A stretch of DNA of 64,000 nt, taken from assembly GCA_963813815.1 (NCBI GenBank), contig CAWFAD010000011.1:1180-65179 (forward strand), given 5' to 3'. Position 1 is the stretch's first letter. Every line of letters begins with the position of its first letter. Shown one piece after another: positions 1,018-62,591 of the stretch. The position numbers were made by a program, and so were the translations under genes. Under the pieces are notes generated by a model. That model ran no database searches, was not told where the DNA came from, and saw only the letters and a list, made by a program, of their open reading frames with translations. Origin of the DNA: an uncultured bacterium. Lineage in GTDB: Bacteria > Krumholzibacteriota > Krumholzibacteriia > Krumholzibacteriales > Krumholzibacteriaceae.

Positions 1018-2160
1018 GGCGCCCTCAAGGTGTTCATCGAGAATTTTCCGTCCGATTACGTGCGCGAAAATATCCCTTTCGTGAACTACGTCCGCGACAA
1101 GAACGCCGCCGGGTTGTATGCCGTCCTCAGCAGCCTCTACTCGGCCACAGGAGGCGCGGAATACACGATCGAGCTGCACGGACGCGGGCGGTTCGCCGGC
1201 ATGGACGACACGCTCAAGTACTTTTCCGGTCCGACGGAGCTCTATGACGAAACGCGGGAAGGCATCCTGCGCGTGTTGAAGATGGGCCTCATGCGATACG
1301 TCGCGCGAACGCCGCTCGCGGGGGAAATCGACATCACGAGCCGGCACGCCGCGCCGCCCCGCACGGTCGTCGATCCGTGGGATTCATGGGTGTTCACGAC
1401 GAGCGCGAGCAGCGGACTCTCCGGAAATCAGCGGGAAGGGGACTACAGCGTGCGCAGCTCCTTCTCGGCGTCGCGGGTCACGGAAGAGCTCAAGATCGAC
1501 TGCGGCGGCTTCATGAGCTATCGCGAGGACGAGACGGCGCTCACCACGAGGACGCTCAAGAACATATACCGCACGAACAGCTTCGACGCCCTCGTCGTCG
1601 CGAGCGTCAGCGACCGCTGGTCCGCGGGAGGGTTCGCGTCGGCGTACTACGCCACGACCGGCTCGAGGAAAGAGATCTATTCCGTCGCGCCGGCGGTCGA
1701 ATTCAGCGTATTTCCCTACAAGGAAGCGAGCCATCGTTTGATCACGTTCCTGTATCGAGTCGAGTACGCGGACGTGACGTATCACGACGTCACGATCTAC
1801 GACAAGCTCTCCGAGCAGCTCTGGCGGCACACCCTCAGCGGCAGCGTGAGCATGTACCGGGAGTGGGGATCCGCGTTCGCGATGCTCGGCGGTTCCCAGT
1901 ATCTCCACGACCTCGACATCAACAGTCTCTCGGCGACCGCGAGCCTCTCGTTCCGCCTCTTCAAGGGGTTCACGCTGAACGTCGGCGGGAGCTACGCGAG
2001 GAATCACGATCTCATCGACCAGCCGAGGCGCGATCTCACGGACGAGGAGATTCTGCTGCGGCTGCGGAGCATCGCGGAGACGTATTCCTACAGCGCCTCG
2101 CTCGGCTTCTCGTACACCTTCGGTTCGATCTACTCGAACGTCGTCAATCCGCGGTTCTGA
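1018..2160 (+). CDS. 3' portion of an outer-membrane beta-barrel-type protein (N-terminus missing, fused in frame to the HAD fragment)
   Basis: Part of ORF 979..2160. High-GC codon usage begins abruptly at about 1018. The product is Ser/Tyr/Thr-rich with alternating hydrophobic residues and ends ...NVVNPRF (C-terminal Phe, typical of OM beta-barrels). No start codon or signal peptide of its own. Confidence 0.35.
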   Translation, partial: GALKVFIENFPSDYVRENIPFVNYVRDKNAAGLYAVLSSLYSATGGAEYTIELHGRGRFAGMDDTLKYFSGPTELYDETREGILRVLKMGLMRYVARTPLAGEIDITSRHAAPPRTVVDPWDSWVFTTSASSGLSGNQREGDYSVRSSFSASRVTEELKIDCGGFMSYREDETALTTRTLKNIYRTNSFDALVVASVSDRWSAGGFASAYYATTGSRKEIYSVAPAVEFSVFPYKEASHRLITFLYRVEYADVTYHDVTIYDKLSEQLWRHTLSGSVSMYREWGSAFAMLGGSQYLHDLDINSLSATASLSFRLFKGFTLNVGGSYARNHDLIDQPRRDLTDEEILLRLRSIAETYSYSASLGFSYTFGSIYSNVVNPRF

Positions 2161-2324
2161 GCGCGCCGGCGCGCACGCGTCCGGTCGTATTCATGCGACC
2201 TGACGGGGCGGGGGACCGGCGCATTATTCGCTGGAACGCGGGCGAGCGTCGCGGGTATTATCACGTCGCTTCGGGAGCGGGGAACGTAGGATATCCCCGC
2301 GTCACCGGGCAAGGAGGATCTCTC

Positions 2325-2978
2325 GTGAAACGATCGATCATGACTCTCGGCGCGCTGGCGCTCGCGGCGATGCTCGCGCTGCCCGTTCTCGCGGAGAAGG
2401 CGACGACGAAAGCTCTCCCCACCCCGCAAACGACGGGCGGCATGCCGCTCATGGACGCGCTCATGGCGCGCCATTCCTCGCGCGAATACGCGCCCGATCC
2501 GCTCCCGCCGCAGGAGCTCTCGAATCTGCTCTGGGCCGCGTTCGGCGTGAACCGGCCGGAGAAGGGGCTCCGGACGGCTCCCTCGGCCCGCAACATGCAG
2601 GAGATCGACGTCTACGTCGCGACGGGGGAGGGGCTCTACCTCTACGACGCGAAGGCGAACGCTCTCGTTCTCGTTCTCGCGAAGGATATCCGCGGAGCGA
2701 CGGGCATGCAGCCCTTCGTGAAAGAGGCGCCCGTGAACCTCGTCTATGTCGTCGACGACGCGAAGATGGGCGACAAGATGCCGAGAGAGGCGAAGGACGC
2801 GTACGCCGCGGCGGACGCCGCGTTCATCAGCGAGAACGTGTATCTCTACTGCGCCTCGGCGGGTCTCGCCACGGTGGTTCGGGGCGCGGTCGACAAGGAA
2901 GCCCTCGGCGCGGCCATGGGGCTCGGCCCCGGCCGGAAGGTCGTTTTCGCCCAGACGGTCGGTTACCCGAAGAAGTAG
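2325..2978 (+). CDS. SagB-type dehydrogenase / nitroreductase-family protein with N-terminal signal peptide
   Basis: GTG start 7 nt after AAGGAGG. Signal-like MTLGALALAAMLALPVLA. Motif RTAPSARNMQEIDVYVATGEGLYLYDAKANALVLV resembles the SagB/nitroreductase fold. In frame with the 3' end of ORF 1377..2978. Confidence 0.6.
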   Translation: MKRSIMTLGALALAAMLALPVLAEKATTKALPTPQTTGGMPLMDALMARHSSREYAPDPLPPQELSNLLWAAFGVNRPEKGLRTAPSARNMQEIDVYVATGEGLYLYDAKANALVLVLAKDIRGATGMQPFVKEAPVNLVYVVDDAKMGDKMPREAKDAYAAADAAFISENVYLYCASAGLATVVRGAVDKEALGAAMGLGPGRKVVFAQTVGYPKK

Positions 2979-2983
2979 CTTCC

Positions 2984-3877
2984 ATGGCGCTCTGCGACAT
3001 CTGTCCGCGCGGCTGCGGCGCCGATCGAGCCGCCCGCGCGGGATACTGCCGTTCGGGAGAGGGGCTCGAGATCGCTTCGATCTGCCGCCATCGCGGCGAG
3101 GAGCCGGCGCTCTCGGGGAGGCGCGGCATCTGCAACGTGTTCTTCGCGCACTGCAACCTGCGGTGCGTGTTTTGCCAGAATCACCAGATCAGCCGCAACG
3201 AGTCCCCCGCCGGTGGCATGGCTCTCGAAGCGGCGGTTCGCGCGATCGTCGACGAGCTCGACGCGGGCGCGACGCACGTCGGCTTCGTCTCCCCTTCGCA
3301 TATGATCCCCCAGATGAAGCGGGTGATCGCCGCCGTCCGCGAAACCGGGCGCGCCCCCGTCGTCGTCATGAACACGAACTCCTACGACCGCTGCGAAACG
3401 ATCGCCTCGCTCGAGGGCCTCGTCGACGTGTATCTCCCCGATTTCAAGTACCTGGACGAGCGCCTCGCCCGCGAGCTCTCGGACGCCCCCGATTATCCCG
3501 CCGTCGCGCTCGCCGCGCTTCGCGAGATGCACCGCCAGAAAGGGTCGAATCTCGCGATGCGGGAGGACGGCACCGCAGCCTCCGGGCTCATCATCCGTCA
3601 CCTCGTTCTCCCGGGGCAGGTCGCGAACAGCGTCGACGTGCTCCGGGCGATCGCCGAGGAGCTCTCGACCTCCGTCCACCTTTCGCTCATGTCCCAGTAC
3701 TATCCGCCCGAAGCGGCCGCGGGGCGCCCGCCGCTCGATCGAACGCTCGCCGAGGATGAATACGAGACGGTGCGCGCGGAGATGGAACGGCTCGGTTTCC
3801 ACCGAGGGTGGATTCAGGAATGGGGGAGCGCCATCGCGTACCAGCCGGATTTCACGAGGCCGCATCCGTTCGAGTGA
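2984..3877 (+). CDS. radical SAM protein, PflX/AmrS-like (pyruvate formate-lyase activase family)
   Basis: CNLRCVFCQN CxxxCxxC motif preceded by an N-terminal Cys-rich stretch (CDICPRGC...YCRSGEG...ICRHRGEEP), typical of PflX/AmmeMemoRadiSam-type activases. Confidence 0.65.
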   Translation: MALCDICPRGCGADRAARAGYCRSGEGLEIASICRHRGEEPALSGRRGICNVFFAHCNLRCVFCQNHQISRNESPAGGMALEAAVRAIVDELDAGATHVGFVSPSHMIPQMKRVIAAVRETGRAPVVVMNTNSYDRCETIASLEGLVDVYLPDFKYLDERLARELSDAPDYPAVALAALREMHRQKGSNLAMREDGTAASGLIIRHLVLPGQVANSVDVLRAIAEELSTSVHLSLMSQYYPPEAAAGRPPLDRTLAEDEYETVRAEMERLGFHRGWIQEWGSAIAYQPDFTRPHPFE

Positions 3878-23128: not shown

Positions 23129-24466
23129 CTAGAACCGGTACGTTCCCGATACGACGACCTCGGTGACGCTCCGCTTCTCGGAGAATATCGCCCCGATCTC
23201 GTCGTCGCTCGTGACCTTCTCGTAGCCGCTGAGCACGACGGCGAGATCGAGAGCGAGCACGCGATCCACGACGCCGCCGATACCGAAGCTCCAATACTGC
23301 CGCTCGCGCTCGGCCTCGAAATCCGCTATCACGGAGAGCGGCGCGTCGTCCACGATGTAGGCGATCTCCTCGATGCCCGTGAGCTCGAGCGGTACGTAGG
23401 CGTAACCGCCGCGCACGCTCACGGGAACCATCGGCAGCCGCGCCTCCGCCCCGGCGCGAAAGCTCCACGCGGCCTCGAGCACCGATTGCTTGCCGGGATC
23501 GATCTCGCTTCGGATCGTGAGGCCGTTGTATTTCGTCTGGGAGTAGTCGGTGTAGGAGACGTCAGCCGCGGCCGTGAGGAGCGGGAGCTCGAGGGCGAGG
23601 CCGCCGCTCCACTTCATCGGCAGCGTGAAGTCGTCCTCGATGGCGCCGTAGAGCGGATCGGTCGTCCAGCCGCCGCCGCTCGTGTACGTCCCCGTGTAGC
23701 TCGTCACTCCCTCGCCGTCGTACGAAAGCCACACGGGGCTCGTGAACGAGAACCCCGCCCGCAGCGATTCGACGAGGCGGATGAGGAGTCCGACGTTGAA
23801 GCTCGCGCCGTCGAGGTCGAGCGAGACGTCGTCGCGCCAGTAGGCCTGCGAATCGGGATCGGCGTAGTTGATCTCGTCGCTGAATTCGATCGATTCGTCC
23901 CAGATCGTGAGCCCCGCGCCGAGCGAAATCCGGGGCGATACGTCGATCCCGGCTCCGAGACAGTACTGGTACAGAGTTCCCGTCTGCACGTACATGTTCT
24001 CGACCATCGCGGGGATTCCGTCGAGATACGCGCTCTTGACCGATTCGAGGTTCGAGTTGGCCGCCTGAAAGACGCCGAAACCGAGCACGAGGTTGCCCCG
24101 GTACGTGGGGTAGGGATACGCGGCGGAGATGTGGCCGAGCGTCGTGCTCGAGTTGGTCTGCACGGAGCTCAGCGACCGGTAGGTGTTGTCGATCTCGTCG
24201 CTGCGCTGGTGGAGGCCGATGGAGAACTCCTTGCTCTGGATATTGACGAGCCCCGCCGGATTGTAGAGGAGGGCGAAGACGTCGTTTCCCGCCGCCGTGT
24301 AAGCGCCTCCCATGGCGAGCGGCCGCGGGCCGGAGCCCGGGACCGAGAGGACGCCGAGCCGCTCGAGCGCGAGACCGGCGAGGATCTGCGCGCGCGGCAG
24401 GCACGGCGCCGCGACGACGGCTGCGAAGAGCACGAGAGCGAGCGTCATACGGACGTGTTGTTTCAT
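23129..24466 (-). CDS. outer-membrane beta-barrel protein, FadL/OmpP1/TodX-like (possibly PorV-like)
   Basis: Signal peptide, alternating amphipathic beta-strands, Gly/Tyr/Ser-rich, C-terminal ...SGTYRF. The PorV suggestion rests only on the T9SS context and FadL-like topology. Confidence 0.45.
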   Translation of the reverse strand: MKQHVRMTLALVLFAAVVAAPCLPRAQILAGLALERLGVLSVPGSGPRPLAMGGAYTAAGNDVFALLYNPAGLVNIQSKEFSIGLHQRSDEIDNTYRSLSSVQTNSSTTLGHISAAYPYPTYRGNLVLGFGVFQAANSNLESVKSAYLDGIPAMVENMYVQTGTLYQYCLGAGIDVSPRISLGAGLTIWDESIEFSDEINYADPDSQAYWRDDVSLDLDGASFNVGLLIRLVESLRAGFSFTSPVWLSYDGEGVTSYTGTYTSGGGWTTDPLYGAIEDDFTLPMKWSGGLALELPLLTAAADVSYTDYSQTKYNGLTIRSEIDPGKQSVLEAAWSFRAGAEARLPMVPVSVRGGYAYVPLELTGIEEIAYIVDDAPLSVIADFEAERERQYWSFGIGGVVDRVLALDLAVVLSGYEKVTSDDEIGAIFSEKRSVTEVVVSGTYRF

Positions 24467-54062: not shown

Positions 54063-54674
54063 CTAGTTCGTGGCCGTGGTTGTGGCGACCGGCGGCTGCA
54101 TGCCGAGGGCCGTCATCGCCTCGACGACCTTCTCCTTCACCGTATTCGCCTTGGTCATCGCATCGGCCACGTCGCCGGCCGAGAAGGCGGTTTGCGCTTC
54201 GGTCCACATCGTGGATGCGGTCTCGTAAGCGCCCTTGGCGCCGTCGAGCGTCGCTTTGTCCATGCCCGCGGGCAACTTCCTGCCGGCCGATAGGGCGTCG
54301 AGCTTGCTCTTGATCTCTTCGAGCATTGTGGGCATCCCGGCGCTCATCTCTTCCCAGCTTTTTGTGAGCTCGATCTTTTTGGTCTCGGCGAGGGCGATGA
54401 GCTCCTTGACCTTGTCGGGGAGGACCTTGACCGCGGTGAGGACCTCATCGAACTTGTTCTGGCTGAGATTCTCCTTCGCGGACGCGATCGCGTCTTCCAC
54501 GCCCTTCGCCTCATCGGGGATGTACTTCACGAGCTCGACCTTGGCGGCGTTGTAGGCGTCTTCGGCCGCTTGAAGCGCGGTCGTCGCCGCCAGTTTCTTG
54601 CCCGCGCCGCAGGCCGCGAGCATCAGACACATAACGGAAACGAGAACAGGCAACAGGTGCTTTGTCGACTTCAT
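54063..54674 (-). CDS. alpha-helical Ala/Lys/Glu-rich lipoprotein
   Basis: RBS AAGGAGGAAG. MKSTKHLLPVLVSVMCLMLAACG lipobox. Low-complexity helical body. Start chosen at the internal Met (54674). Confidence 0.4.
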   Translation of the reverse strand: MKSTKHLLPVLVSVMCLMLAACGAGKKLAATTALQAAEDAYNAAKVELVKYIPDEAKGVEDAIASAKENLSQNKFDEVLTAVKVLPDKVKELIALAETKKIELTKSWEEMSAGMPTMLEEIKSKLDALSAGRKLPAGMDKATLDGAKGAYETASTMWTEAQTAFSAGDVADAMTKANTVKEKVVEAMTALGMQPPVATTTATN

Positions 54675-54764
54675 CTCGCTTCCTCCTTTCTTTAGGGAAA
54701 GGGGAATGCTAAGAGAGAAGCTCCGGAAATGCAAACAGTATTTAGGAACCGTCTGTTCCGGGCG

Positions 54765-57188
54765 CTACCTCGCGAGCACCATCTTCTTCGTTTCCGAGTA
54801 GGCGCCCGTCTCGAGCCGGTAGAAATACACTCCGCTCGCGACGGCCCGCCCCGATGCGTCGCACCCGTCCCAGATCTCGGTATACCGCCCCGCCGTGCGA
54901 TGCTCCTCAACGAGCGCGCGAACGAGCCGCCCCGCGGGGTCGTAGATGCGGAGCGATACGCGCGCCGGCGTCCCGAGGCCGAACTCGACCCGCGTCATCG
55001 GATTGAAAGGATTCGGATAGTTCTGCGCGAGGTAGCTCGCCTCGGGCGGCGGAGGCGTCTCTCCGCCCGTGATCTGCTCGGGCGCGAGAATCGCGAAGCC
55101 GCTCTCGTTTCCATGGATATCGACCGCCGAGACCTTGTAGTAGTAGCCCACACTCCAGCTCCAGCCCGCGTCGAAGCAGATCGTGTCCTCGGGAGAGGCG
55201 ATGAGGTTCCCCTCATCGGGAATGAAATCCTCCGCGATCCCGCGGTACACGCGATAGCCCGCGAGGTCGGCCTCGGTATTGCCGTCCCACGAGAGCTCGA
55301 GGCCGTCGGGCACGTAGCTCTGCTCGGCCGCGAGGCCGAGAGGCAGGGTAGGGGCGAGGTTGTCGACCGAGTAGCCGCTGTCCGGCGCCGATTTCCAGAA
55401 CACGAAGGGGTCGGACGTGTGAGCCACCACCTGGAAGTAATGATACTCGCCGCAAGCGGCGGTCGAGTCGAAGAGAGTGGCCACGGGCTTCCCGTATGCC
55501 TCCATGTAGAGCGCGTCGACCGTCTCCACGAGCTCCCAGAAGTAGGTGAGCGCTCCGATCTGCTCGACCCGTACGACGGGCTTGTCGGCCGCGGTATCGA
55601 GCTCGGATAGAGACGCGAGGGGCGAAACGCCCGAGTCGAGGGCGAGCGCCGCCTGCGTCGGACTGATGGCGCGCCAGATCGAGTAGTACGACATATCGCC
55701 CGTCATGAAGAGGTCGGGGCGGGCCGCGTACCAGGAGAGGTACACCTTGCCTCCCTGATCGCCGGGGACGTCGCGGACGGTGTGGATCTCCGGCGACAGC
55801 ATGCCGGTGCGACCGAACGTGTCTATGAATTGAACGTAGATGTCGCCGTTCCCATCGCGGTAATCCGACCATGCGACGATCGCGCCGCCCCTGTTATCTG
55901 AGGCGATCACGGGATACTCCTGCGTCTGTGCCGCGGTGCAAAGAGCGACCCCATCCGCGGCCCATTGAACCGCTCCCGAAGGATTCACTCGCTGGGCGTA
56001 GATGTCATAGATCCCGCTGCGGGCGTCGAACCATGAGATGATGGCGCCGCCGTCGACGTCGGAAGCGATGACGGGATAATACTGAGTCCCGGTCGCCGTG
56101 CAGACGGCGATGCCGTTGGCGATCCACTGGACGACACCCGAGGCATCCAGCTTTTGAGCGTAGATGTCATAGTTGCTGCCGTTGCGATAGTCGTACCACG
56201 AGACGATGGCGCCGCCGGCATCGTCGGATACGATGACTGGATAATATTGAGCTCCCGTCGCAGTGCAGAGAGCGACGCCGGTCGTCGTCCATTGAACGAC
56301 TCCAGAGGCGTTCACGCGCTGGGCATAGATGTCGTAGTTCGCGCTGCGGTAGTCGTACCACGTGACGATCGCGCCGCCCGTCCCGTCGGAGGCAATGGTG
56401 GGATACTGCTGATTCCACGCGACGGTACAGAGGGCGACGCCGTCGACGGTCCATTGAGCGACTCCAGAGTTGCTCACTCGCTGAGCATAGATGTCATAGT
56501 TGCTGCCGTTGCGATAGTCCTGCCATGCGACGAGGGCTCCGCCGGCGCCGTCTGAGACGGTGGTGAGAGACAACTGGCCGTTCGCCGCCGCGCAGACGGC
56601 GACGCCATTGGCGGTCCACTGAACGACCCCCGAGGCATTCACCCTCTGAGCATAGACATCGTAGTTGGAGCCGCTCCGGTAGTCGTGCCACGTGATGATC
56701 GCGCCGCCGACACCGTCCGAGACTATCTTCGGGTTCAACTGATCGCCTGTCCCTGCGCACAGAACCACCCCGTTCGCCGCCCACTGAACGGCTCCCGAGG
56801 CATCGACCCTCTGCGCGTAGATGTCCCAGCTGGTGCTCGTGCGGTAATCGTGCCATGCGACGATCGCGCCGCCCGCGCCGTCGGAGACGATCGCCGGTAC
56901 CTGCTGGTCAAACGCCATCGTGCAAAGAGCGACTCCGTTGGCCGTCCACAAGACTTCTCCAGAGGCGCTCACGCGTTGCGCGTAGATGTCCGTGTTCGAG
57001 TTGCGGTAGTCGTTCCACGCGATGATCGCGCCGCCCGCGCCGTCGGAGCCGATTGCAGGGCGCAATTGATCTCCCGTGGCCGTACAGAGAGCGACGCCGT
57101 TTCCTACCCAATAAGCCCAGATCGAAGGCACGGCGATTACGAGCGAACCGAGCGCCAGCGCAAACGCAACCTTCATAGCCTTGCTCAT
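54765..57188 (-). CDS. secreted repeat protein with T9SS (Por) C-terminal sorting domain
   Basis: RBS GGGAG before MSKAMKVAFALALGSLVIA (signal peptide). Eight tandem repeats of about 54 aa (consensus G-V-A-L-C-T-A-x-x-Q-x-x-P-x-I-V-S-D-G-A-G-G-A-I-V-A-W-x-D-Y-R-x-G-S-N-Y-D-I-Y-A-Q-R-V-N-A-S-G-V-V-Q-W). C-terminus ...GVYFYRLETGAYSETKKMVLAR matches the T9SS type-A CTD pattern. Confidence 0.6.
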   Translation of the reverse strand: MSKAMKVAFALALGSLVIAVPSIWAYWVGNGVALCTATGDQLRPAIGSDGAGGAIIAWNDYRNSNTDIYAQRVSASGEVLWTANGVALCTMAFDQQVPAIVSDGAGGAIVAWHDYRTSTSWDIYAQRVDASGAVQWAANGVVLCAGTGDQLNPKIVSDGVGGAIITWHDYRSGSNYDVYAQRVNASGVVQWTANGVAVCAAANGQLSLTTVSDGAGGALVAWQDYRNGSNYDIYAQRVSNSGVAQWTVDGVALCTVAWNQQYPTIASDGTGGAIVTWYDYRSANYDIYAQRVNASGVVQWTTTGVALCTATGAQYYPVIVSDDAGGAIVSWYDYRNGSNYDIYAQKLDASGVVQWIANGIAVCTATGTQYYPVIASDVDGGAIISWFDARSGIYDIYAQRVNPSGAVQWAADGVALCTAAQTQEYPVIASDNRGGAIVAWSDYRDGNGDIYVQFIDTFGRTGMLSPEIHTVRDVPGDQGGKVYLSWYAARPDLFMTGDMSYYSIWRAISPTQAALALDSGVSPLASLSELDTAADKPVVRVEQIGALTYFWELVETVDALYMEAYGKPVATLFDSTAACGEYHYFQVVAHTSDPFVFWKSAPDSGYSVDNLAPTLPLGLAAEQSYVPDGLELSWDGNTEADLAGYRVYRGIAEDFIPDEGNLIASPEDTICFDAGWSWSVGYYYKVSAVDIHGNESGFAILAPEQITGGETPPPPEASYLAQNYPNPFNPMTRVEFGLGTPARVSLRIYDPAGRLVRALVEEHRTAGRYTEIWDGCDASGRAVASGVYFYRLETGAYSETKKMVLAR
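55814..57113. repeat. eight about 162-bp tandem DNA repeats encoding the propeller-like repeats of the T9SS protein
   Basis: Near-identical peptide repeats and a cluster of spurious same-length ORFs in the six-frame track across this interval. Confidence 0.6.
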
Positions 57189-57396
57189 GGTCGTTTCTCC
57201 CTTCAAGGATGAATTTCGAAGCTATTTATTTATAGTAGCATACAGCGACAGCCTCATAAAGCAGAATATATGGCTTCGAAGAGCTTGCTGCCCGCCTTTT
57301 GGCTTTGACTCGGCGCGCCATGCGCAATACACTGGTCTCGGTGGCGCAATGCTCATTCACCTATGAGACGCGTCTCCGTAAGATGAACCGGGAGCC

Positions 57397-58619: not shown

Positions 58620-60374
58620 TTACTGAATCTCCCTCGACTGCTCGTCGAAAAGGACGCGGTAGAGGCCGCCCGCCTGATAGAGCGTGTTGTGCGTGCCCGA
58701 CTCGACCAGCCTGCCTTCGCTCAGCACGAAGATACGGTCCGCGTTCGTCACGCTCGTGAGGCGGTGGGCGATGATGATGACGGTTTGGCCTCTCACCTTC
58801 TCGAAGTAGCTCCCGAGCACCTGCCGCTCCGTGCGCGGATCGAGGGCGGAGGTGGCCTCGTCGAGGACGTGGATGCGGGGCGCCTTGAGGAGCGACCGCG
58901 CGAGCGCGAGCCGCTGGCGCTCTCCGCCCGAGAGGCGGAGCCCCTGCTGGCCGACGATCGTCTCGAGCCCCTCCGGCAGATTCGCGAGAAACTCCCCGAG
59001 AGAGGCCGTCTCCATGGCCGCGACGAGCTCCGCCTCCGTGGCCCGCGGCCGGGCCATCCGCAGGTTCCCCGCGATCGTGTCGTGAAACAGCTGCGTCTCC
59101 TGCGGAACGACGCCGATCGCGCGGCGGAGGCTCTTGAGCTTCCAGCGCCTGAGGTCGAGATCGTCGATGTAGACCGCGCCTTGCTGCGGATCGAGGTAAC
59201 GGGCGATGATCGCGGCGAGCGTGGATTTGCCGCTTCCCGAGGGACCGACGAGCGCGATCACCTGCCCCGGCTCCACCGAGAGACTGATATTCTCTATCGC
59301 CCTCGCGCCGTTGGGCCACGTGAGGCCGACCTGCTCGAGGCGGATCGCGCCCGTGACGCGGGGCGGCGCCGTCGCCTCCGCGTGCTCCTGAATCTGCGGT
59401 TCCGTGTCGATGAGGTCGTACACTCGGGCGAGCGACGCCCTCGCCATCTGGAGCTCGATGTTGATGTCGATGAGCTGCGAGATCGGCCGGTAGAGACGGC
59501 TCGCGAGCGTGTAGAACGCCACGAGACTGCCGAGGCTGAGCGTTCCGCCGAGCACCCGTCTGCCTCCCATGAGAAATACGAGGATAAAGGCGCCGGTCGA
59601 CATGACGTCCGCGAGCGAGACTTGTCCCGCGCCGATCACGGAGAGGGCGAGGTTGCTGCGGATCCACGGCCGCGACACGCGGACGAGGCGGCGGGTCTCG
59701 GCCTTCTCCCGGATAAGTTCCTGAACGAGGCGGATGCTCGAAATCCGCTCCTCGAGAAACGAGAAGAGGTCGGAGATCGCGTCCCTCGCCTTGATTCCCT
59801 CTTCCTGAATGCGGTGGTTGATTTTCGCGAGGATGGCGACGAGGAACGGATAGACGAGGAGGAGCAGGAGCGTGAGGCTCGGATCGATCCAGAAGAGGAT
59901 CGTCAATATCCCGACGATCGTCAAAACGTCCTGAATCGCGTTGACGATCGTGTGGGCGGCCGCGTGCTGGAGCACGTCGATGTCGGAGCTGATTCTCGCG
60001 AGTATGTCGCCCGTCTGCTCTCCGCGGAAGAAGAAGGGGGAGAGGCGTTCGACGTGCTCGAAGGCCTGCCGGCGGTAGTCGAAGAGGATCCGAAGCCCCG
60101 AGTAGCTGTAGAGCCAGACCGAGATGAGACGGAATCCCGTGCGAAAGACGAGCACGCCGAGAAGTATGGACACGAGCATGAGAAGAAGCGAGTAGTTGCC
60201 GTCGCCGATCGCGCGGTCGATGATGGTTCGCAGGATCAGCGGATCGATCAGGTTGAGAAAGACGTTGATGATGAGGCAGACCGCGATTTCGGCCTGAAGG
60301 CCGTAGTAGGGGCTCACGCGCTCGCGGAGGAAGCGCCGCAAGAGCCCGCGTCGGCTGGGATTCGCCTGTTTCAT
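58620..60374 (-). CDS. ABC exporter (fused 6-TM permease + ATPase), bacteriocin/type I secretion-like but without an N-terminal C39 peptidase domain
   Basis: 584 aa. TM domain from residue about 20. Walker A GPSGSGKST, signature LSGGERQRLALAR, Walker B IHVLDEATSALD. Confidence 0.8.
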   Translation of the reverse strand: MKQANPSRRGLLRRFLRERVSPYYGLQAEIAVCLIINVFLNLIDPLILRTIIDRAIGDGNYSLLLMLVSILLGVLVFRTGFRLISVWLYSYSGLRILFDYRRQAFEHVERLSPFFFRGEQTGDILARISSDIDVLQHAAAHTIVNAIQDVLTIVGILTILFWIDPSLTLLLLLVYPFLVAILAKINHRIQEEGIKARDAISDLFSFLEERISSIRLVQELIREKAETRRLVRVSRPWIRSNLALSVIGAGQVSLADVMSTGAFILVFLMGGRRVLGGTLSLGSLVAFYTLASRLYRPISQLIDINIELQMARASLARVYDLIDTEPQIQEHAEATAPPRVTGAIRLEQVGLTWPNGARAIENISLSVEPGQVIALVGPSGSGKSTLAAIIARYLDPQQGAVYIDDLDLRRWKLKSLRRAIGVVPQETQLFHDTIAGNLRMARPRATEAELVAAMETASLGEFLANLPEGLETIVGQQGLRLSGGERQRLALARSLLKAPRIHVLDEATSALDPRTERQVLGSYFEKVRGQTVIIIAHRLTSVTNADRIFVLSEGRLVESGTHNTLYQAGGLYRVLFDEQSREIQ

Positions 60375-61441
60375 CGCTTCTTCGTCCCGGCGAGCCTTTC
60401 GATGAGGAGGTGGCCGAGAGAGACCTTCTCATCGACGATGATCCGCGCCTGCCCTTTCATTCCGTCATAGAGCGGGCCCGGCGCGGTCGAGGGGTCGAAG
60501 GACACCTTTACGGGAAAGCCGCCGCCGCTCCGGCAGTCGTCCACGAAATCGAGCCGCCCGGCGAGGGTGCCGTGGAGAAGCCAAGGGTATCCCTCGAGCC
60601 GGATTTTGACCCTGTGTCCGGGACGCGCGGAGGCGCGGCCGGCGTCGAAGACGGCGCCCTCGAAGCGGTCGGCCGGGCCGGTCGAGAGGCGCAGTATCTC
60701 CTCGCCGCGCGTTACGGTTCGTCCCATGAGCTCGAAGAGGTTCGCGCCGAGCACGATCCCCCGGGTATCCGCCGCGAGCGTGTCGAGGGCGAGCATGCGG
60801 TCCGTTTCACCCACAGCCGCGCGCTCCTCGGCGATTTGCCCGGCGAGATTCCGAATTTCCCCGTCGAGCTTCTCGATTTGGTCCCGATGCCGCGCTTCGA
60901 GCACGGGGCCCGCGGCCTCGGCTTCCTTGAGCGCCACCCGGGCGAGATCGAGGGCGAGCTCGGAATCCTGAAGCTCCAGCTTCGTCGTGAGCCCCATGTC
61001 CCAGAGCTGCTTCTTGAGATCGAACTGTATCTCGGCGCTCGAAAGCTCGAGCCGGCTCCGCTCGAGATCCCGCGAGGCTTGGAGAACCTCGGCGGGGTGG
61101 ATCTGCGAGGCGAGTCGCCCGCGCTCGGCTCGGAGCACGACGATGCGGTCCGACAGGTTCGCGATCCGCGCCCTGATCTGCTCGTCCTGCGCGCGGAGCG
61201 GGGAGGACTCGAATGCGACGAGCGGCGCGCCGGCCCTAACGCTGTCCCCCGGCGCCACGAAAATCCCTTCGACGCGGCCTTCCCACGGCGCATACACAGC
61301 GACGGTGCCGCCGGCGAGACGGCCCTCGGCGATGACGACCCGGTCGATTCGCACAAAGAGGAGGAGACAGACCACGGCGACGAAAAGGCAGGAGCCGAGC
61401 GTCAAAAGGGGACGCAAAAGAGGCAGTGGGCGACGATGCAT
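60371..61441 (-). CDS. HlyD-family membrane fusion / secretion adaptor protein
   Basis: N-terminal TM anchor, biotinyl/lipoyl-like hairpin, long coiled coil and a C-terminal beta domain. The stop overlaps the ABC gene start (ATGA). Confidence 0.8.
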   Translation of the reverse strand: MHRRPLPLLRPLLTLGSCLFVAVVCLLLFVRIDRVVIAEGRLAGGTVAVYAPWEGRVEGIFVAPGDSVRAGAPLVAFESSPLRAQDEQIRARIANLSDRIVVLRAERGRLASQIHPAEVLQASRDLERSRLELSSAEIQFDLKKQLWDMGLTTKLELQDSELALDLARVALKEAEAAGPVLEARHRDQIEKLDGEIRNLAGQIAEERAAVGETDRMLALDTLAADTRGIVLGANLFELMGRTVTRGEEILRLSTGPADRFEGAVFDAGRASARPGHRVKIRLEGYPWLLHGTLAGRLDFVDDCRSGGGFPVKVSFDPSTAPGPLYDGMKGQARIIVDEKVSLGHLLIERLAGTKKR

Positions 61442-61499: not shown

Positions 61500-61610
61500 T
61501 CAGAGAGGGCCGATTTCGCACGCGGGCGGATACTCGGCGCACTGCATGCAGTGCGTGAGCGGCGGTTTCACGTGCGCGATGTTCGTGGAATGCTTGACGA
61601 CGAACTTCAT
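61500..61610 (-). CDS. candidate RiPP precursor peptide 1 (36 aa): MKFVVKHSTNIAHVKPPLTHCMQCAEYPPACEIGPL
   Basis: RBS GAGGTG 7 nt upstream. One of six paralogous small ORFs sharing the MKFVVK N-terminus and the T-x-C-x-x-C-x-E-x-P-x-x-C C-terminal motif. Below the ORF-track size cutoff. Confidence 0.6.
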   Translation of the reverse strand: MKFVVKHSTNIAHVKPPLTHCMQCAEYPPACEIGPL

Positions 61611-61705
61611 TTATTTTCACCTCTTCGATGGGACGAAGTGGCGCGGTCGCAGGGACCGCGCCACTCGCCGAGCCATATCGATCGACGATTATCGAGAAAT
61701 CGCGA

Positions 61706-61813
61706 TCAAATGGGGTCGATGACGCAGGCTGCCGGATTCTCCTTGCAGAGCCAGCACAGCGTATAGTTGACCCTCTTCGCCACCTCGGCGTTACGCTTTA
61801 CGACGAACTTCAT
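61706..61813 (-). CDS. candidate RiPP precursor peptide 2 (35 aa): MKFVVKRNAEVAKRVNYTLCWLCKENPAACVIDPI
   Basis: RBS GGGAGGG upstream. Same family motif. Confidence 0.6.
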   Translation of the reverse strand: MKFVVKRNAEVAKRVNYTLCWLCKENPAACVIDPI

Positions 61814-61859
61814 TGTTTCCCTCCCTTCCCTTTCCTTGCCCGTACGGGCTCACCTGGCG

Positions 61860-61958
61860 CTAGAAGCAGAATATGGGGTTTTCCGAGCACTGGGCGCAGC
61901 GGGTCGTGGGACCATTATGCGGTCCGACGCCGTTACGGCCGAGAACGATGAACTTCAT
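61860..61958 (-). CDS. candidate RiPP precursor peptide 3 (32 aa): MKFIVLGRNGVGPHNGPTTRCAQCSENPIFCF
   Basis: RBS GAGGAG upstream. Same family motif. First gene after the putative internal operator/promoter. Confidence 0.6.
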   Translation of the reverse strand: MKFIVLGRNGVGPHNGPTTRCAQCSENPIFCF

Positions 61959-62016
61959 GAGGATCGCTCCTCTCGCAACGATTGGAGATACGGCAGCCGA
62001 AATTTAGAGAGTCCCT

Positions 62017-62033
62017 TGAACAATCAGTTCAAA
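62017..62033. promoter_or_regulatory. perfect palindrome TTGAAC-aatca-GTTCAA in the gap between precursor genes 4 and 3 (candidate operator or internal promoter element)
   Basis: Read directly from the sequence. Lies in the only long (about 250 bp) spacer inside the peptide array, about 75 bp upstream of the peptide 3 start codon. Confidence 0.3.
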
Positions 62034-62106
62034 AATAACCCTTTAATTTTGTCATAGAGCGCGGCGGGAGTCAAGGTATTTGGGAGTGGCCCGCGGAAAG
62101 GGAAAT

Positions 62107-62130
62107 GGCGCGCTCCCGGAGGAGCGCGCC
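62107..62130 (-). terminator. GC-rich hairpin GGCGCGCTCC-cgga-GGAGCGCGCC downstream of precursor gene 4 (possible attenuator or partial terminator)
   Basis: 10-bp perfect stem with a 4-nt loop. On the minus strand it is followed by a pyrimidine-rich ATTTCCCTTTCC stretch. A second, weaker hairpin (AGCACTT...AAGTGCT) lies at 62149-62174. Confidence 0.35.
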
Positions 62131-62209
62131 ATTCCATGGCGCATTCTCAGCACTTCGGAAATCCGCAAAGTGCTTGCGGGCACCGATGCTCATCGCGCGC
62201 CGGCTCCGA

Positions 62210-62308
62210 TCAGTAGCAGGCGAGTGGATTCTCCTTGCAGAGAAAGCACATTGTGATCCTCGGCATGGCCGATTTGCGCGTCTCGGCGGGCTTTACGACG
62301 AACTTCAT
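62210..62308 (-). CDS. candidate RiPP precursor peptide 4 (32 aa): MKFVVKPAETRKSAMPRITMCFLCKENPLACY
   Basis: RBS AAGGAGGTG upstream. Same family motif. Followed by two hairpins. Confidence 0.6.
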   Translation of the reverse strand: MKFVVKPAETRKSAMPRITMCFLCKENPLACY

Positions 62309-62349
62309 ACTTCACCTCCTTACGATGAACTTGATGTGTTCCCCCTCGC

Positions 62350-62466
62350 TCACTCGCACCAGTGCGGGTCTTCCGAGCAGAGGGCGCAGAGCGTATGTCT
62401 CGGAATAACGCCATCCGAAGGCTTCGCATGGCGCGTTTCGGGGTTTGATGTCACGATGAACTTCAT
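62350..62466 (-). CDS. candidate RiPP precursor peptide 5 (38 aa): MKFIVTSNPETRHAKPSDGVIPRHTLCALCSEDPHWCE
   Basis: RBS GGAGGAG upstream. Same family motif. Confidence 0.6.
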   Translation of the reverse strand: MKFIVTSNPETRHAKPSDGVIPRHTLCALCSEDPHWCE

Positions 62467-62486
62467 AGCGCCTCTCCTCCCTATTA

Positions 62487-62591
62487 TCACTCTTCGCAGG
62501 CGCGGGGCTCCTCATGGCAAAGCCAGCAGCGCGTCAAATGAGTGGAATTCGATCCGCGCGTCCCGAGCAACGGCTTCACGACGAATCTCAT
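62487..62591 (-). CDS. candidate RiPP precursor peptide 6 (34 aa): MRFVVKPLLGTRGSNSTHLTRCWLCHEEPRACEE
   Basis: RBS AGGAGGG upstream. Same family motif. First gene of the array, next to the divergent promoter region. Confidence 0.6.
   Translation of the reverse strand: MRFVVKPLLGTRGSNSTHLTRCWLCHEEPRACEE

Follow-up and report, generated by a model that had tools for sequence, protein, structure and literature searches.

A 64,000-nucleotide stretch of DNA from an uncultured bacterium of the Krumholzibacteriaceae (assembly GCA_963813815.1, contig CAWFAD010000011.1, positions 1,180 to 65,179; referred to below as the window) was analysed with respect to one gene on its minus strand, located at positions 54765-57188. 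The gene encodes a repeat-containing protein of 807 amino acids (aa), which on balance is probably a modular, non-catalytic, multivalent binding protein that is secreted or held at the cell surface after export by the Sec and type IX secretion system (T9SS) pathways. The order of its parts can be given with high confidence: a signal peptide is followed by an eight-bladed beta-propeller, a beta-sandwich, an Fn3-like domain, and a C-terminal sorting domain. The Sec and T9SS route is likely, judged from the signals on the cargo protein only; for a binding function of the variable face of the propeller the chances appear even. The gene is correctly assembled, belongs as a new member to a very large repeat family that has neither a curated model nor a characterised member, and can be given a fuller annotation than "hypothetical".

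Domain layout and repeat array

Parsing of the translated sequence gave eight tandem repeats with lengths of 54, 55, 55, 55, 54, 55, 54, and 51 aa, which together occupy positions 55806-57104 of the window. A tblastn search of the whole window with the repeat consensus returned eight matches, all within the gene, and nothing significant elsewhere; the eight consecutive Cys-containing repeats described in the initial annotation were thus recovered exactly by both routes. A unit of 54 aa and 162 bp was given there; the actual repeats vary between 51 and 55 aa, with a DNA period of 162/165 bp from the spacings (Tandem Repeats Finder: period 165, 71% matches).

A structural model was calculated with AlphaFold2 (AF2) from an alignment of 36 full-length orthologues. 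Its mean predicted local distance difference test score (pLDDT) was 85, with values above 90 over most of the repeat region; a model from the single sequence reached a mean pLDDT of only 32 and was unusable. Each repeat forms four strands in the former model (for example at 32-35, 41-48, 54-60, and 67-73), and 32 strands follow one another in a strict 8 x 4 register at aa 32-455. Because of this register, the repeat region is modelled as an eight-bladed beta-propeller rather than a beta-helix, and of the two folds initially offered for it only the propeller was retained. The propeller head (aa 29-461, 55806..57104, minus strand), which is defined by repeat parsing, tblastn, AF2, and the structure search with Foldseek described below, is made up of blades 1-4 at 56943-57104, 56778-56942, 56613-56777, and 56448-56612 and of blades 5-8 at 56286-56447, 56121-56285, 55959-56120, and 55806-55958, all on the minus strand. 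The mature protein starts with a short YWV cap (57105..57113, minus strand) containing W27, which is invariant in the 36 orthologues. Blades 2-7 end in VQW, in agreement with the terminal motif reported at first; blade 1 has VLW instead, and blade 8 ends in ..TFGRT, without VQW. Since the invariant N-terminal YW copies the VQW that blade 8 lacks, it likely stands in for this motif and would act as the element that closes the ring.

The repeats had been described as nearly identical and the interval as prone to assembly collapse or expansion, which would make the real number of blades differ from eight. Neither statement could be maintained. Pairwise identity of the repeats is 62% on average at the protein level (range 49-70%) and 68% at the DNA level (range 56-75%), and the longest exact word common to two repeats measures 32 nt. 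An assembly artefact of this kind would draw on the regularity of the tandem array, with its 162/165 bp period, and on the one shared 32-nt word; the units are, against this, far too diverged for collapse at the level of k-mers or reads. They are hardly more alike in DNA than in protein, which means that synonymous changes have effectively reached saturation and that the duplication is ancient. All eight repeats and an unchanged overall length are kept in the 36 aligned orthologues, which share 45-68% identity and also retain the N-terminal YW cap, and more than 60 proteins of ~800 aa with seven or eight W.D.R motifs were counted among the best 120 matches. These proteins come from independent assemblies of JGI, ENA, and NCBI, including a closed 4.13-Mb chromosome. 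An artefactual blade number is for these reasons considered extremely improbable.

The likely start of the gene is the ATG at 57188, which yields a coding sequence of 807 aa plus stop. A GGGAG Shine-Dalgarno sequence was located at 57197-57201, 8 nt upstream of this codon. The mechanically called open reading frame (ORF; 54765-57206, minus strand, 813 aa) begins at a TTG at 57206, which overlaps the ribosome-binding site; the boundaries 54765-57188 in the initial annotation are therefore those of the ATG start. An identical 807-aa protein (P0001) is already deposited in NCBI/ENA, on a contig of 258 kb and without a name.

Two further domains lie between the propeller and the C-terminal sorting domain, as had been proposed in the form of Ig/Fn-like modules. 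The middle beta-sandwich with a helical insert (aa 462-612, 55353..55805, minus strand; AF2 strands at 467-599) forms the first part of a putative stalk. It holds a conserved VRDVPGDQGG motif, in which D473, P475, D477, and G479 are invariant in the 36 orthologues, and no sequence match to it was found in Pfam or the PDB. The second part of the stalk is the Fn3-like domain (aa 613-705, 55074..55352, minus strand; AF2 strands at 622-701), for which the orthologue profile matches an Fn3-like protein in the PDB (3mpc, E = 0.0028, positions 609-687). A Pro-rich linker (GGETPPPPE) and the T9SS type A C-terminal sorting domain complete the protein (aa 706-807, 54768..55073, minus strand).

Export signals and the C-terminal cassette

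The signal peptide (MSKAMKVAFALALGSLVIAVPSIWA, aa 1-25, 57114..57188, minus strand) was assigned by inspection to the Sec, signal peptidase I type, with the cut placed before YW. It contains a hydrophobic helix at aa 3-18 in the AF2 model and no lipobox Cys. The pattern ..AVPS(I/V)WA-YW (the hyphen marks the cut) is kept in the orthologues, with A25 at least 90% conserved.

The C-terminal stretch was compared with profiles of the T9SS sorting domains, the comparison that had been named beforehand as the check on this assignment. The type A model TIGR04183 matched with 33.3 bits (cutoff 23) over residues 730-810 of the 813-aa ORF, corresponding to profile positions 2-70 of 72 and to window positions 54777-55019. 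PF13860 (FlgD_ig) matched the same stretch with 34.4 bits (gathering score 27). The NCBIfam matches did not include the type B model TIGR04131, and CHU_C, the corresponding Pfam model, remained below threshold (20.4 vs 27). The initial description of a Por-secretion sorting domain is borne out by these results, and tblastn located a single C-terminal sorting domain in the window. Hallmarks of T9SS type A C-terminal domains are a seven-strand sandwich of 3+4 strands, a Gly conserved in the loop between beta3 and beta4, and a Lys within beta7 (PMC11285876). The AF2 model contains seven strands at aa 719-805 in a 3+4 sandwich; G753, between strands 3 and 4, is invariant among the 36 orthologues, and K802, in the last strand, is conserved in at least 90% of them. 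In the PDB, PorU (6za2) and PorZ (5m11) are matched by the orthologue profile over their C-terminal domains, PF18962 (Por_Secre_tail) matches are precomputed on many orthologues, and NCBI gives close orthologues the name "T9SS type A sorting domain-containing protein". Like the type A cargo proteins RgpB and HBP35 of Porphyromonas gingivalis, the protein has a Sec signal, an Ig-like end of ~80 aa with seven strands, and the Gly and Lys residues; it differs from them in its QNYPNPFNP motif, which is typical of non-Bacteroidota lineages of the Fibrobacterota-Chlorobiota-Bacteroidota (FCB) group, and in that the domain scores as FlgD_ig as well. An identity as FlgD hook-capping protein was rejected: PRK12633/PRK06655 gave 23.7 bits vs cutoffs of 383/230, and the Ig-like domain alone matches.

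The T9SS has been placed in the Bacteroidota and "possibly" in other FCB phyla (PMC11285876), and the gene adds indirect evidence for a T9SS-like export route operating in the Krumholzibacteriota. Among the window ORFs scanned, only a FadL/TodX-like outer-membrane beta-barrel at 23129-24466 (minus strand) resembles a T9SS component in any way; it scores 31.8 bits with the PorV/PorQ family model (PorV_fam; cutoff 90) and 71 bits with BamG (cutoff 250).

The C-terminal half recurs behind other N-terminal domains. Residues ~460-807 align with 29-36% identity to proteins from metagenome-assembled genomes (MAGs) of KSB1, Neomarinimicrobiota, and unclassified FCB-group bacteria. The N-termini scanned on these relatives comprise MtrC-like multihaem cytochrome domains, FG-GAP propellers, an M6 peptidase that is combined with a beta-helix, and a hydrolase resembling PETase; loci with the ~340-aa cassette behind such other heads are L005:8237-11005, L006:1392-5273, L007:6011-10912, and L012:2484-4124. 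Contigs were scanned with the patterns QN[YFV]PNPFN, the C-terminal-domain motif, and DSG[YR]SVDN[LI]; most of the 80 loci obtained match the C-terminal domain only. The beta-sandwich, the Fn3-like domain, and the C-terminal domain thus appear to constitute a portable, generic stalk-plus-sorting display cassette, and since the same cassette stands behind differing heads, the propeller would be the functional head of the present protein. In the orthologous genomes, genes for many further proteins carrying this C-terminal domain, FG-GAP and Chlam_PMP types among them, lie nearby.

Variable propeller face, relatives, and proposed function

Fifteen positions are invariant in all eight blades of the protein (G3, C7, Q13, S20, D21, G24, G25, A26, W30, D32, R34, D39, Y41, Q43, and G49). 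Motifs noted initially, namely a Cys, an SDGAGGAIVAW core, and DYRxGSNYDIYAQRV, are confirmed by this alignment in the form of the Cys, SDGxGGA..W, and D.R....D.Y.Q, which occur in every blade. The blades of the 36 orthologues were then pooled (8 blades x 36 orthologues, 288 blades), which gave the consensus ADGVALCTAxGxQxxPxIxSDGAGGAIVTWxDxRSGNxDIYAQRVNASGxVQWT with G3, Q13, D21, G24/25, W30, D32, R34, D39, Y41, Q43, G49, and W53 as near-invariant residues. The framework of a blade can be written as G..xC....Q..P.I.SDGxGGAIVxW.D.R....DIYAQR...G..QW. Seven positions per blade (12, 14, 15, 17, 31, 33, and 38) exceed an entropy of 3 bits; taken together, 19% of the residues at these positions are Tyr, and Gln, Ser, Asn, Asp, and Thr come next. 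In the AF2 model the positions are found where strand B begins, where strand C ends, and at or just before the beginning of strand D. As an up-down four-strand blade has its A-B and C-D connections on one side, the variable positions would share one face of the propeller, probably opposite an invariant face that carries the SDGxGG hairpin (B-C) and the NASGxVQW linker (D-A).

Blades 1-7 were found to lack positional orthology, with an identity of 0.58 between blades at the same position and of 0.56 between blades at different positions; only blade 8 is position-specific. Every blade is therefore held to one framework, with the variable positions randomised. In a pair of orthologues with 92% identity, 15 of the 44 substitutions in the propeller fall on variable positions (expected 13%; binomial P = 2.7e-4). 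The rate of nonsynonymous substitution (dN) in the same pair is 0.176 at the variable positions, compared with 0.040 for the framework and 0.029 for the C-terminal half, and its ratio to the synonymous rate (dN/dS) over the whole gene is 0.42.

A diversity-generating retroelement was considered as the source of the hypervariability and rejected because the window contains no template-like second copy of a blade outside the gene, because the ORFs scanned in the window include no reverse transcriptase, and because Q, E, and W are frequent at several of the variable positions. These three residues cannot arise by adenine mutagenesis of AAY codons. The Cys position of the blades is occupied by Cys in 89% of cases and otherwise mostly by Ser, and 14 of the 36 orthologues have odd numbers of Cys (7, 9, 5, or 11); an obligate role in disulfide formation is unlikely on both counts. 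The Cys residues could possibly form a ring of thiols near the hub.

Relatives of the protein are abundant. A word-indexed search was saturated, with all 8000 of 8000 candidates significant (at least 8000 relatives), and an exhaustive phmmer search with the propeller against 1.84 billion representatives of clusters defined at 50% identity returned 29,462 clusters at E <=1e-3 and 9,002 at <=1e-30. Blade-bearing proteins reach lengths of 5,506 aa, and named orthologues belong to Krumholzibacteria, Latescibacterota, and Eisenbacteria. The blade is not represented by any family in Pfam, NCBIfam, or the PDB, and a PDB search with its profile gave no sequence match at E values up to 10. The assignment of the repeats to an unknown family was accordingly correct as far as curated families are concerned; the family itself is huge and already present in the databases under generic names. 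The only genuine curated match at the level of the repeat is TIGR04275 (beta_prop_Msarc), which gave six stretches and 63 bits, below its cutoff of 85. It shares the W.D.R...DIY.Q core and differs in length, with 40 model positions vs 54-55 aa for the blade. Literature searches on TIGR04275, or on the T9SS in Krumholzibacteria, Latescibacteria, and Eisenbacteria, returned nothing relevant.

Several other names were discarded. PF14061 (Mtf2_C, eukaryotic Polycomb-like; 35.6 bits) and PF12989 (DUF3873; 29 bits) were treated as false positives because no single stretch passes and the gathering score is exceeded only by summing weak repeat matches; the precomputed Pfam labels Mtf2_C, DUF1491, and Lipoprotein_15 on orthologues are repeat artefacts. 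The JGI name "predicted lipoprotein with Yx(FWY)xxD motif" is unsupported: the resemblance to PF03640 (Lipoprotein_15) is weak, concerns the DIYAQ / W.D.R segment, and stays below the gathering score (22.6 vs 24.4), and the protein has no lipobox. The misleading names attached to the blade include Mtf2_C, DUF1491, FlgD, and "Yx(FWY)xxD lipoprotein"; the annotation of many FCB-group MAGs would gain from a family model built for it.

At least two paralogues of the 800-aa protein are present in orthologous genomes, namely two in CP070727.1 (P0102 and P0110) and a tandem pair in L081 (5508-7955 and 8001-10427). One relative with 51% identity (P0012, 1325 aa, ~13-15 blades, with a DUF4114 domain) carries an NCBI label that places it in the MAG of a Candidatus Hermodarchaeota archaeon; either it is a bin contaminant or the repeat module has been transferred to an Asgard archaeon. 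Among 39 diverse members of the family, the co-occurring Pfam domains are almost all non-catalytic (FlgD_ig/Por_Secre_tail, DUF4114, PKD, Big_9, cadherin-like, LTD, and CARDB), and the only enzyme-associated partners are the non-catalytic C-terminal domain of GH85 (three members) and a beta-helix (one member).

The closest structural neighbour returned by Foldseek was the propeller lectin CV39L from Chromobacterium violaceum (6gxs; E = 5.6e-11, target-normalised template modelling score (TM-score) 0.68, 13-14% identity). Further matches were to integrin alpha, PorZ, sialidases, GH145/PL42, and DPP8, and correspond to generic propeller similarity. Lectins of the PLL family are secreted, seven-bladed propellers of highly similar tandem four-strand blades with repeated binding sites. 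CV39L and the PLL lectins are closest in fold, yet neither the blade profile nor the full-length profile finds CV39L by sequence; the present protein has eight blades, together with a stalk and a C-terminal sorting domain that the PLL lectins lack.

The following sequence of steps is proposed. The Sec signal peptide, recognised from the sequence only, would direct the protein to the periplasm. The type A C-terminal domain would then take it across the outer membrane, where it would either be released or, as in the Bacteroidota, lose the C-terminal domain by cleavage and become anchored at the surface. The beta-sandwich, the Fn3-like domain, and the C-terminal domain would act as the generic stalk-plus-sorting cassette that is shown in other FCB lineages. 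The N-terminal propeller would be the working part, and its variable face would set the specificity for the ligand. Binding would be non-catalytic, multivalent, and similar to that of a lectin or adhesin, with a glycan or another repetitive polymer or surface as the most plausible ligand. Binding is preferred to catalysis because the conserved blade residues recur in all eight blades, leaving no single active site, and because the partner domains in the 39 relatives are almost all non-catalytic. The missing positional orthology of blades 1-7, the Tyr-rich variable positions with their excess of substitutions, and the propeller lectin CV39L as closest structural neighbour are counted on the same side.

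A number of observations weigh against this proposal. At the variable positions dN/dS is 0.72 when calculated with their own dS and reaches ~1.7 only with the gene-wide dS of 0.104; for this one pair, diversifying selection accounts for the pattern no better than a relaxed constraint on exposed residues. The closure of the ring and the placement of the variable positions on one face follow from the topology and not from model coordinates. On the side of export, PF18962 (Por_Secre_tail) narrowly misses its gathering score on the protein itself (23.1 vs 27), no T9SS component (sprA/sov, porV, porU, or gldKLMN) was found among the ~38 larger ORFs scanned in the 64-kb window, and literature searches found no paper that documents a T9SS in the Krumholzibacteriota. 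Propeller enzymes (sialidases, GH145/PL42, and DPP8) were also returned by Foldseek at similar scores. Conservation of the whole protein across the phylum (55-68%) is close to that of PolA (62-72%), which also fits a structural or housekeeping role at the surface.

The Foldseek result bears on the idea that the propeller is itself an enzyme of the glycoside hydrolase, polysaccharide lyase, or sialidase-like type, in which case the protein would be a secreted degradative enzyme. Sialidases (2bzd, 1eut), GH145/PL42 (5mum, 5mul, 7esn), GH43, and DPP8 were matched at E ~1e-7 to 1e-8, and the same C-terminal cassette carries the M6 peptidase and the PETase-like hydrolase in other lineages. These structural matches, however, have identities of 8-14% and target-normalised TM-scores of 0.3-0.6, as expected for generic propeller likeness, and no catalytic family was matched by sequence. 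Enzyme propellers have diverged blades and one asymmetric site, whereas here the conserved polar residues are present in every blade, and the almost entirely non-catalytic company kept by the propeller in the 39 relatives points in the same direction. A degradative enzyme is accordingly regarded as distinctly unlikely.

The even conservation bears on a different explanation, according to which the protein is a structural component of a surface coat, or a PorZ-like accessory of the secretion or attachment apparatus, instead of a ligand-binding adhesin. All four domains are conserved to a similar extent of ~60% across the orthologues, comparable to PolA across the phylum, and more than 60 orthologues have the same length and number of blades. 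The architecture also resembles that of PorZ, in which one or more propellers precede a T9SS C-terminal domain, and 5m11 is the sixth-ranking Foldseek match (E = 6.4e-10). The C-terminal domain of PorZ has been described as non-cleaved (PMC11285876). The present protein differs from PorZ in that it combines one eight-bladed propeller with a beta-sandwich and an Fn3-like domain and occurs as several paralogues per genome, as in CP070727.1 and L081. The NCBIfam model of PorZ (NF052228) scores 20.6 bits vs 260, on the C-terminal domain only, and the TM-score to 5m11 is 0.16-0.17. The wide spread of the blade module over the 29,462 clusters, in many architectures, and the fast evolution of the gene over short distances, unlike that of core machinery, speak against this explanation as well. 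It is considered unlikely, and binding by the variable face remains the preferred function of the propeller.

If the variable face does bind, the proteins are candidates for the attachment of uncultured Krumholzibacteriota, Latescibacterota, and Eisenbacteria to polymers or cells. A more far-reaching proposal, which is speculative and rather doubtful, regards the blade as a natural consensus-framework scaffold that presents 56 hypervariable residues per propeller (8 x 7), rich in Tyr, Ser, Asn, and Asp, on one face. The family of 29,462 clusters would then amount to a large set of variable surface receptors, so far unrecognised, in candidate phyla of the FCB group, and would be under diversifying selection for ligands, for phages, or for other cells nearby, as with variable binders of the leucine-rich-repeat or ankyrin type. 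The pattern of a constant framework with a hypervariable face is the one feature worth following up.

Neighbouring genes and the window

The window contains ordinary chromosomal genes (ftsK, polA, lysS, lolCE, rnc, fabH/fabF, plsX, sucC, rimO, a prfB-like gene, pilT, mcsB, and clpC), and the named relatives of its PolA at 62-69% identity are all from Krumholzibacteria. The location of the propeller gene in a lower-GC island of its own, as initially annotated, was not substantiated: the whole stretch of 50-64 kb, including clpC and mcsB, has a GC content of 0.59-0.65, compared with ~0.64-0.71 over most of the other parts of the window, and the GC content at third codon positions of the gene (0.81) lies within the range of its neighbours (0.72-0.92). 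A scan of the window for sigma-70 promoters and terminators was uninformative; the sigma-70 consensus is probably unsuited to this phylum.

Four neighbourhoods of orthologues were compared with the window. Beyond paralogues and proteins with the C-terminal domain, they have nothing in common with the window or with each other; as synteny is not conserved, no operon partner can be proposed. The ORF at 54063-54734 (minus strand) follows the propeller gene on the same strand, 30 nt downstream of it (~90 nt from its first ATG). It encodes a lipoprotein-type signal (..LMLAAC-G) and a body rich in Ala, Lys, and Glu, which is probably helical; it matches no family and does not recur beside the orthologues.

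Six small ORFs are arranged in tandem at 61500-62590 (minus strand). Their products start with M(K/R)F(I/V)V and end in a C-x2-C-x-E-x-P-x2-C motif, examples being MKFVVKPAETRKSAMPRITMCFLCKENPLACY at 62308-62210 and MKFIVLGRNGVGPHNGPTTRCAQCSENPIFCF at 61958-61860. Genes for an HlyD-like protein (60371-61441) and an ATP-binding cassette (ABC) exporter (58620-60374) follow directly downstream of the six ORFs on the same strand. The locus looks like a multi-precursor export locus for bacteriocins or ribosomally synthesised and post-translationally modified peptides (RiPPs) and corresponds to the RiPP cluster next to which the propeller gene had been placed initially. The cluster itself is real; a functional link to the propeller gene is not supported, since a divergent acyltransferase gene lies between them and no synteny is shared in the four orthologue neighbourhoods. 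At the start of the window, an ORF similar to SagB-family peptide dehydrogenases (1377-3877, plus strand; TIGR03605 41.8 bits, cutoff 78.4) is followed by a radical S-adenosylmethionine (SAM) protein, and this region may represent a second locus for peptide modification.

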